From: Escherichia coli
GTDB lineage: Bacteria > Pseudomonadota > Gammaproteobacteria > Enterobacterales > Enterobacteriaceae
Assembly (NCBI RefSeq): GCF_003334385.1
Contig: NZ_QOWN01000054.1
Length of the DNA stretch: 31,048 bases
Direction: 5' to 3' (one strand)
Shown: positions 6,254 to 6,299 of the stretch, piece by piece
How positions within the stretch are numbered: the first letter of the stretch is position 1
How the letters are laid out: the number at the start of each line of letters is the position of its first letter
Program-made: the position numbers and the translations under genes
The notes under the pieces: generated by a model
What the model was told of the DNA's origin: nothing
Databases searched by the model: none
Seen by the model: the letters and a program-made list of their open reading frames with translations, nothing else

Positions 6254-6299
6254 GAGTAAAAATGACTCGCTACCCGCAGCAGGCGAGTCATTTTTACTC
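6254..6299. promoter_or_regulatory. ZraR enhancer-like site: two perfect 17-bp inverted-repeat arms between divergent zraP and zraSR promoters
   Basis: GAGTAAAAATGACTCGC (6254-6270) and its exact reverse complement GCGAGTCATTTTTACTC (6283-6299) separated by 12 bp, lying upstream of both sigma54 promoters. Confidence 0.6.

Follow-up and report, generated by a model that had tools for sequence, protein, structure and literature searches.

Conservation and geometry of the inverted repeat between the divergent zraP and zraSR promoters of Escherichia coli, a very probable ZraR enhancer

Organisation of the locus

The DNA analysed here, referred to as the window, is a stretch of 31,048 nucleotides of an Escherichia coli contig (NZ_QOWN01000054.1) which contains the zraR-zraS / zraP locus. 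The three genes were named by NCBIfam equivalog models, all with scores far over the respective cut-offs (Table 1), and the start codon of zraS is the one given in the RefSeq annotation. The product of zraR carries the Pfam domains Response_reg, Sigma54_activat and AAA_lid and a Fis-type HTH_8 domain, and its residues 141-441 match the solved ZraR structure (PDB 1OJL).

The genes zraP and zraS are each preceded by a sigma-54 promoter, and the inverted repeat that is the subject of this work is placed between these two divergent promoters. The -24/-12 elements of both were found at the places that an earlier interpretation of the DNA, made from its letters alone (the sequence-only reading), had implied, and they agree letter for letter with the motifs that sigma-54 ChIP-seq gave for the two genes (PMC4591121). 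The same pair of promoters was found in Salmonella (PMC3844500). The -24/-12 positions were used to place the transcription starts, that of zraP near 6368 and that of zraS near 6176.

From position 6140 to 6480 the window is identical to the genome of K-12 MG1655 with the exception of one extra T in the zraS leader. This T belongs to a T-run of the 5' leader (6162-6165) which has four residues here, three in MG1655 and in six inspected E. coli, and six in E69. At 100% identity, no match to the 251-bp spacer was obtained among the complete E. coli genomes.

Neither a sigma-70-like promoter nor a terminator-like site was found in the zraP/zraS spacer, and a search of the spacer against Rfam returned sub-threshold noise only. 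Inspection by eye of the DNA from the arms to either promoter in E. coli for the IHF consensus (WATCAANNNNTTR) gave only mismatched and non-conserved candidates. A direct repeat, TATCAGCG(C/T)TT, which is found beside each -24 element in E. coli, was discarded as a candidate since it is not conserved outside Escherichia.

Table 1. Features of the zraSR-zraP locus, with positions in the window
Feature	Position	Strand	Remarks
zraR	3435..4760	-	NF007689, 995 bits (cut-off 760); sigma-54-dependent response regulator
zraS	4757..6154	-	NF007688, 842 bits (cut-off 479); sensor histidine kinase; first gene of the target operon
zraS sigma-54 promoter TGGCATGATTTCTGCT (plus strand AGCAGAAATCATGCCA)	6187..6202	-	Read from the window; published motif
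Left arm GAGTAAAAATGACTCGC	6254..6270		Conserved 15-mer 6254-6268 (G-R-GTAAAAATGAC-Y-C); 11-bp core GTAAAAATGAC 6256-6266
ZraR ChIP-exo peak_9, projected	6263..6295		Projected by MG1655 alignment; wholly within the repeat
Central spacer TACCCGCAGCAG	6271..6282		12 bp; sequence variable, core-to-core distance fixed
Right arm GCGAGTCATTTTTACTC	6283..6299		Conserved 15-mer 6285-6299; invariant core GTCATTTTTAC 6287-6297
zraP sigma-54 promoter TGGCACGGAAGATGCA	6342..6357	+	-24 GG 6343-6344; -12 GC 6355-6356
zraP	6393..6818	+	NF008584, 274 bits (cut-off 200); periplasmic zinc-dependent chaperone/modulator; target gene

The inverted repeat

Read directly from the window, the right arm is the exact reverse complement of the left arm, and the sequences of the arms, their coordinates and the separation between them are exactly those given by the sequence-only reading. 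A repeat finder lengthens the arms to 20 nt with one mismatch (6251-6270 / 6283-6302; 95% complementarity).

When the 17-mer was searched in the 31-kb window with up to three mismatches, only the two arm copies were recovered, the expected number being 0.05. Moreover, among the perfect inverted repeats of the window with loops of up to 40 nt, the one with these 17-nt arms ranks first in length, the runner-up having arms of 12 nt. Since the 17-mer is found at two places only, and since none of 60 first-order Markov simulations of the window produced a repeat longer than 12 nt, a chance event is excluded. As single-stranded DNA the repeat folds into a hairpin of 21 pairs (-18.8 kcal/mol, z = -9.1).

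Other perfect inverted repeats, with arms of 10-12 nt, were observed in the window at 30897-30922, 18463-18486, 7900-7936 and 27091-27116. Several of them are bordered by A-runs and T-runs, as for instance AAAAACCCGC cgaa GCGGGTTTTT, and these look like ordinary intrinsic or bidirectional terminators.

Binding of ZraR

In MG1655, eleven ZraR peaks were identified by ChIP-exo and the strongest by far, peak_9, with a S/N of 72.97, lies at MG1655 4201786-4201818 (PMC7657598 Data Set S2). The MG1655 sequence was aligned to the window in order to map this peak; the repeat corresponds to MG1655 4201782-4201827 and contains the whole of the peak, the centre of which is about 2.5 bp off the repeat dyad. 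In gSELEX experiments with purified ZraR, the zraP/zraSR spacer was the single high-affinity target, accounting for 81 of the 86 clones (PMC8249747). The published knockout of zraR abolishes the induction of both zraP and zraS, whose levels under zinc are about 12.7 and 3.2 log2 units lower, respectively; this result bears on the regulator and not on the site.

The sequence-only reading had taken the repeat for a ZraR enhancer and had named published ZraR footprinting as the comparison to be made. The ChIP-exo data bear this interpretation out, as the strongest peak is inside the repeat and not elsewhere in the spacer, and so does the recovery of the spacer as the gSELEX target.

A second ZraR ChIP-exo peak, peak_8 (S/N 34.24, MG1655 4201673-4201698), projects to 6383-6408 of the window, on the ribosome-binding site and start codon of zraP. 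Counted from the inferred start of zraP, this region covers about +15 to +40. It is without an arm-like motif, and the peak may be an indirect cross-link via a looped activator-polymerase complex.

The base-level limits of ZraR protection are taken here from the ChIP-exo peak coordinates and from the binding region reported in a footprint study. In that study, from Leonhartsberger et al. in 2001 (J Mol Biol 307:93), phosphorylated HydG reportedly binds a part of the zraP-hydHG spacer that is made up of two inverted repeats with 14 bp between them. We take these to be the present element, parsed as 16-nt arms. A full-text search with the arm sequences returned unrelated primers only, the site itself not being printed in the open-access papers covered. 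A review of 2016 gives the consensus of the ZraR enhancer as not known for Salmonella; citation of the site is thus not general, and the consensus may still have a practical use.

Conservation of the element

Thirty-two orthologous loci were collected from Escherichia, Citrobacter, Klebsiella, Salmonella, Kosakonia and Phytobacter, one genome being scanned per species. The zraS-zraR genes are divergent from zraP in all collected loci and the arms are present in 32/32 of the enterobacterial loci. The alignment of the zraP-zraS spacers, a check proposed by the sequence-only reading, comprised 33 sequences and revealed as the only strongly conserved blocks the two arms and the two sigma-54 promoters, the latter nearly invariant across genera; the rest of the spacer is unalignable. 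For comparison, the protein identities range from 49 to 99% for ZraP and from 63 to 95% for ZraS.

A further block, ACCCTG ... ACACAAA (about 6219-6238), is moderately conserved across genera. It is located in the DNA from the promoter of zraS to the left arm, and nothing equivalent is present towards zraP. On the opposite strand it opens with GGGTAAG, similar to the first letters of an arm, and it could represent either a third, weak site or the target of some other factor.

The consensus of the arm over the 33 genomes is 15 bp long and reads G-R-G-T-A-A-A-A-A-T-G-A-C-Y-C. In the right arm 13 of these 15 positions do not vary at all; in the left arm they are nearly invariant, the exceptions being E. 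albertii and C. youngae with one core substitution each, and the left 11-bp core is kept in 31/33 genomes. Position 2 of the arm varies as a purine and position 14 as a pyrimidine, and positions 16-17 (GC) are not generally conserved. Changes at positions 2, 14, 16 and 17 are usually not mirrored in the opposite arm: imperfect pairing is seen in 10 of the 13 distinct combinations of arms, and where the left arm has a G at position 2 (15 genomes), the right arm keeps an A at the matching position in 13 cases. The perfect stem ranges in length from 8 to 21 bp across genera while the sequence of the 11-bp core stays fixed. The central spacer is unconserved across genera.

The absence of any drift in the arms had been put forward in the sequence-only reading as a sign of strong selection. 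The constraint is indeed strong, since at least six genera share 13 of the 15 positions with hardly an exception, but the perfect 17-bp symmetry is not conserved and, on the genomes aligned, is lineage-specific. Because the variable arm positions drift without compensation and the core is fixed, selection holds a sequence motif in each arm, that is to say two protein-binding sites, and not hairpin pairing or the 17-bp symmetry.

Within E. coli the element is single-copy (median of one place per genome) and is present in 5420 of the 5426 complete genomes, as is the zraP/zraS spacer of about 250 bp. The 46 bp are identical in 4359 genomes, with one or two differences in 1054 and three in 7. In the variants that were fetched the differences lie mostly in the central 12 bp, which read TACCCACAACAG in ST131 and TACACACAGCTG in MFDS1019527. 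In the EPEC O127:H6 lineage an A of the right arm is replaced by G, so that this arm reads GGGTCATTTTTACTC.

Three peculiarities of individual genomes were recorded. In strain SCU-124 one base of the A5/T5 run is gone from both arms, at the equivalents of window positions 6258-6262 and 6291-6295, and zraS is annotated as frameshifted; the symmetric loss is likely to be a homopolymer assembly error. In O157:H7 strain PV15-279 the RefSeq annotation includes a 42-aa 'hypothetical protein' that runs from an ATG in the left arm through the zraP promoter (309-437 of locus L045, equal to 6262-6390 of the window). The same annotation over the enhancer recurs in several other genomes and is almost certainly a spurious gene call. 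Escherichia sp. MOD1-EC7003 keeps the arms and both promoters; tblastn matches were obtained there only to ZraS residues 1-287 and ZraR residues 307-441, a pattern which suggests that zraS-zraR has been fused or truncated by a deletion within it.

Spacing of the arms and promoters

The distance between the centres of the two cores is 31-33 bp in all 33 genomes, and 31 bp in most of them, and the left core is found at 58.5-60.5 bp from the -24 GG of zraS, also in all 33. The right core is at 61.5-63.5 bp from the -24 GG of zraP in all non-Escherichia genera and at 50.5-51.5 bp in all six Escherichia. In the latter, the DNA from the right arm to the -24 element of zraP (window 6300-6341; loci L011-L037 compared) is thus shorter by 11 bp, or one helical turn, the zraS side being unchanged. 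A difference of this size preserves the helical phase and is consistent with a face-of-helix constraint on DNA looping. Counted from the inferred start of zraP in the window, the centres of the arm cores fall close to -76 and -107; counted from that of zraS, they fall close to -85 and -116.

Each arm has dyad flanks of its own, GRGT and ACYC, 11 bp apart around an A-tract. In the commonest Citrobacter state the left arm has the form GGGT...ACCC and the right arm GAGT...ACTC, and the arms are self-symmetric yet unlike each other. Self-complementary left arms were counted in 22/33 genomes against about 14.5 expected, most of them from one Citrobacter clade. The AAAAATG interior is almost invariant and asymmetric, and in enterobacteria it is mirror-oriented between the arms.

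A related element in Desulfovibrio

Two Desulfovibrio loci (L041, 2169-2307, and L040, 2290-2423) have a zraP-like gene (33-37% identity), and genes for a histidine kinase and a response regulator are transcribed divergently from it. Both contain GTAACTTTTTTAC-N20-GTAAAAAAGTTAC, located at 2169-2214 in L041, upstream of a sigma-54 promoter, TGGCACGCCGCTTGCT, and an IHF-like sequence, TATCAGTATATTA, is found between the arms and this promoter. The arms are flipped and are 2 bp longer than the enterobacterial ones; the 20-bp gap is the same.

We tentatively suggest that the paired-arm module, consisting of two A-tract pseudo-palindromes with GTA...AC ends placed 20 bp apart, could be the ancestral architecture of site recognition in the entire ZraR clade, extending to Desulfovibrio, although we would give this rather less than an even chance. 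If true, it would constitute, together with the one-turn deletion of Escherichia, a natural experiment in which selection fixes the spacing of the arms and the helical phase, and not the orientation of the arms or their perfect symmetry.

Proposed mode of action

We interpret the repeat as the upstream activating sequence (bacterial enhancer) of ZraPSR, common to the divergent zraP and zraSR sigma-54 promoters, and assign to this reading a probability of about 0.93. The repeat has an upstream position, as sigma-54 enhancers do, typically some 70-150 bp before the start; a cognate AAA+/HTH activator is known to occupy it, its paired dyad sites are separated by whole helical turns, and the site and the regulator occur together.

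According to the mechanism that we propose, which is the usual one of NtrC-type activators and has the best support, each 15-bp arm (G-R-G-T-AAAAATG-A-C-Y-C) would be a complete site for one ZraR dimer, contacted by its Fis-type HTH domains, with the outer tetranucleotides GRGT and ACYC presented one helical turn apart around the A-tract. The two sites, 31 bp or about three turns apart, would be on the same face of the helix. In the presence of zinc or envelope stress, ZraS would phosphorylate ZraR and the two DNA-bound dimers would then nucleate the active AAA+ hexamer. The hexamer could contact the sigma-54 holoenzyme in the closed complex at either promoter by looping of the 50-60 bp of DNA in between, and ATP hydrolysis would lead to the open complex. 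As a result ZraP would be induced and zraSR positively autoregulated.

A stoichiometry of one ZraR dimer per arm is the most likely, because every arm has dyad flanks, the separation is 31 bp, too wide for one Fis-type HTH dimer as the family is known, and the Citrobacter arms are self-symmetric. Against it, a purely symmetric dimer site would not require an asymmetric, mirror-oriented AAAAATG. The Citrobacter state is confounded by phylogeny, and so is the association seen within arms between positions 2 and 14. The latter is suggestive in the same direction; as a proof of one dimer per arm it was dropped, the supporting genomes being mostly from one Citrobacter clade.

The alternative that survives best, though we consider it unlikely, is that the whole 46-bp element is the site of a single ZraR dimer, each arm being the half-site of a monomer. 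This would account for the mirror image of the arms, including the asymmetric AAAAATG, for their invariant orientation in enterobacteria and for the single ChIP-exo peak centred on the overall dyad. However, the HTH dimers of NtrC and Fis DNA-binding domains span a spacing of one turn, and half-sites separated by 31 bp (about 105 angstroms) would be far beyond it. Moreover, each arm carries its own dyad flanks, GRGT and ACYC, and the flipping of the arms with maintenance of the gap in the two Desulfovibrio loci is easier to understand with autonomous pseudo-symmetric sites.

Much less probable is that the repeat is kept for the sake of a nucleic-acid structure, such as a DNA cruciform or an RNA hairpin acting as attenuator or terminator. 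The fold of the single-stranded DNA, with its 21 pairs, is what speaks for it. Nevertheless the repeat precedes the inferred transcription starts of both divergent genes and lies between them, in a spacer with no terminator-like site or sigma-70 promoter and only noise in Rfam. The arm changes are uncompensated, most of the distinct arm pairs are imperfect, and the stem varies from 8 to 21 bp around a fixed 11-bp core. A hairpin or cruciform function is rejected because it is the motif of each arm, and not the base-pairing between arms, that is held.

Equally improbable is that the site serves mainly another protein, for example Fis or a nucleoid protein with a preference for G-N3-A/T-tract-N3-C, ZraR being secondary. 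The DNA-binding domain of ZraR is itself of the Fis type (HTH_8), and each arm presumably resembles the 15-bp Fis-type pattern, which begins with G, ends with C at position 15 and is rich in A/T in the middle. Against this, it is at the repeat that tagged ZraR has its strongest genomic peak in ChIP-exo, and purified ZraR selects the spacer in gSELEX. In addition the motif is single-copy and lies in the divergent zraSR-zraP spacer in every genome examined, as fits a dedicated regulator.

Least probable of all is that the palindrome arose by chance or was left behind by a mobile element or REP-like repeat. This reading has nothing in its favour beyond the fact of an inverted repeat, and against it are the negligible chance expectation and the occurrence at one place per genome, with only the two arms in the window. 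The locus of the repeat is shared by 5420 of 5426 E. coli genomes, and in at least six genera the repeat keeps its place with respect to the two promoters.

Relevance of the element and comparison with known systems

The enhancer is the cis-acting switch of the ZraPSR response to envelope stress and zinc, and also of the zinc and lead biosensors based on zraP. The present analysis sharpens the minimal functional ZraR site, which would consist of the 15-bp arm, a spacing of 31-33 bp and phase-preserving distances to both promoters. Such a definition of the arm could aid the prediction of ZraR targets, the reported regulon ranging from 1 to about 25 of them, as well as the design of synthetic sigma-54 promoters. 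The value of the work is confirmatory and no new question is opened by it.

The element is the already known ZraR (HydG) enhancer of the zraP-zraSR (hydHG) region of E. coli. With the known site (Leonhartsberger et al. 2001; curated in RegulonDB) it shares the locus, the sequence and the regulator, and there is no difference of substance. What is added here is a definition, across genera, of the constrained unit, namely a 15-bp arm with a near-invariant 11-bp core and a spacing of 31-33 bp. Further additions, of a modest kind, are the lineage-specific symmetry, the phase-preserving deletion in Escherichia and the related paired-arm element of Desulfovibrio.

The NtrC enhancer at glnAp2 offers, ahead of a sigma-54 promoter, two strong dyad-symmetric sites for NtrC dimers at a distance of about 32 bp from each other, and NtrC oligomerises on phosphorylation and loops to the promoter. 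The ZraR enhancer is like it in having two sites about three turns apart on one face, an activator of the receiver-AAA+-HTH_8 type and a -24/-12 promoter. The sites themselves are different, being TGCACC-N5-GGTGCA for NtrC and GRGT-A-tract-ACYC for ZraR. Unlike the enhancer at glnAp2, that of ZraR has a shorter distance to the promoter (about 50-63 bp from the cores to the -24 element), serves two divergent promoters and has two sites that mirror each other.

The norR-norVW spacer is another point of comparison. NorR is likewise a dedicated enhancer-binding protein encoded beside a single divergent target, and multiple sites are needed for its oligomer to form (PMC2831303; PMC8249747). The difference is one of number, since NorR has three sites and one sigma-54 promoter whereas ZraR has two arms and two sigma-54 promoters.
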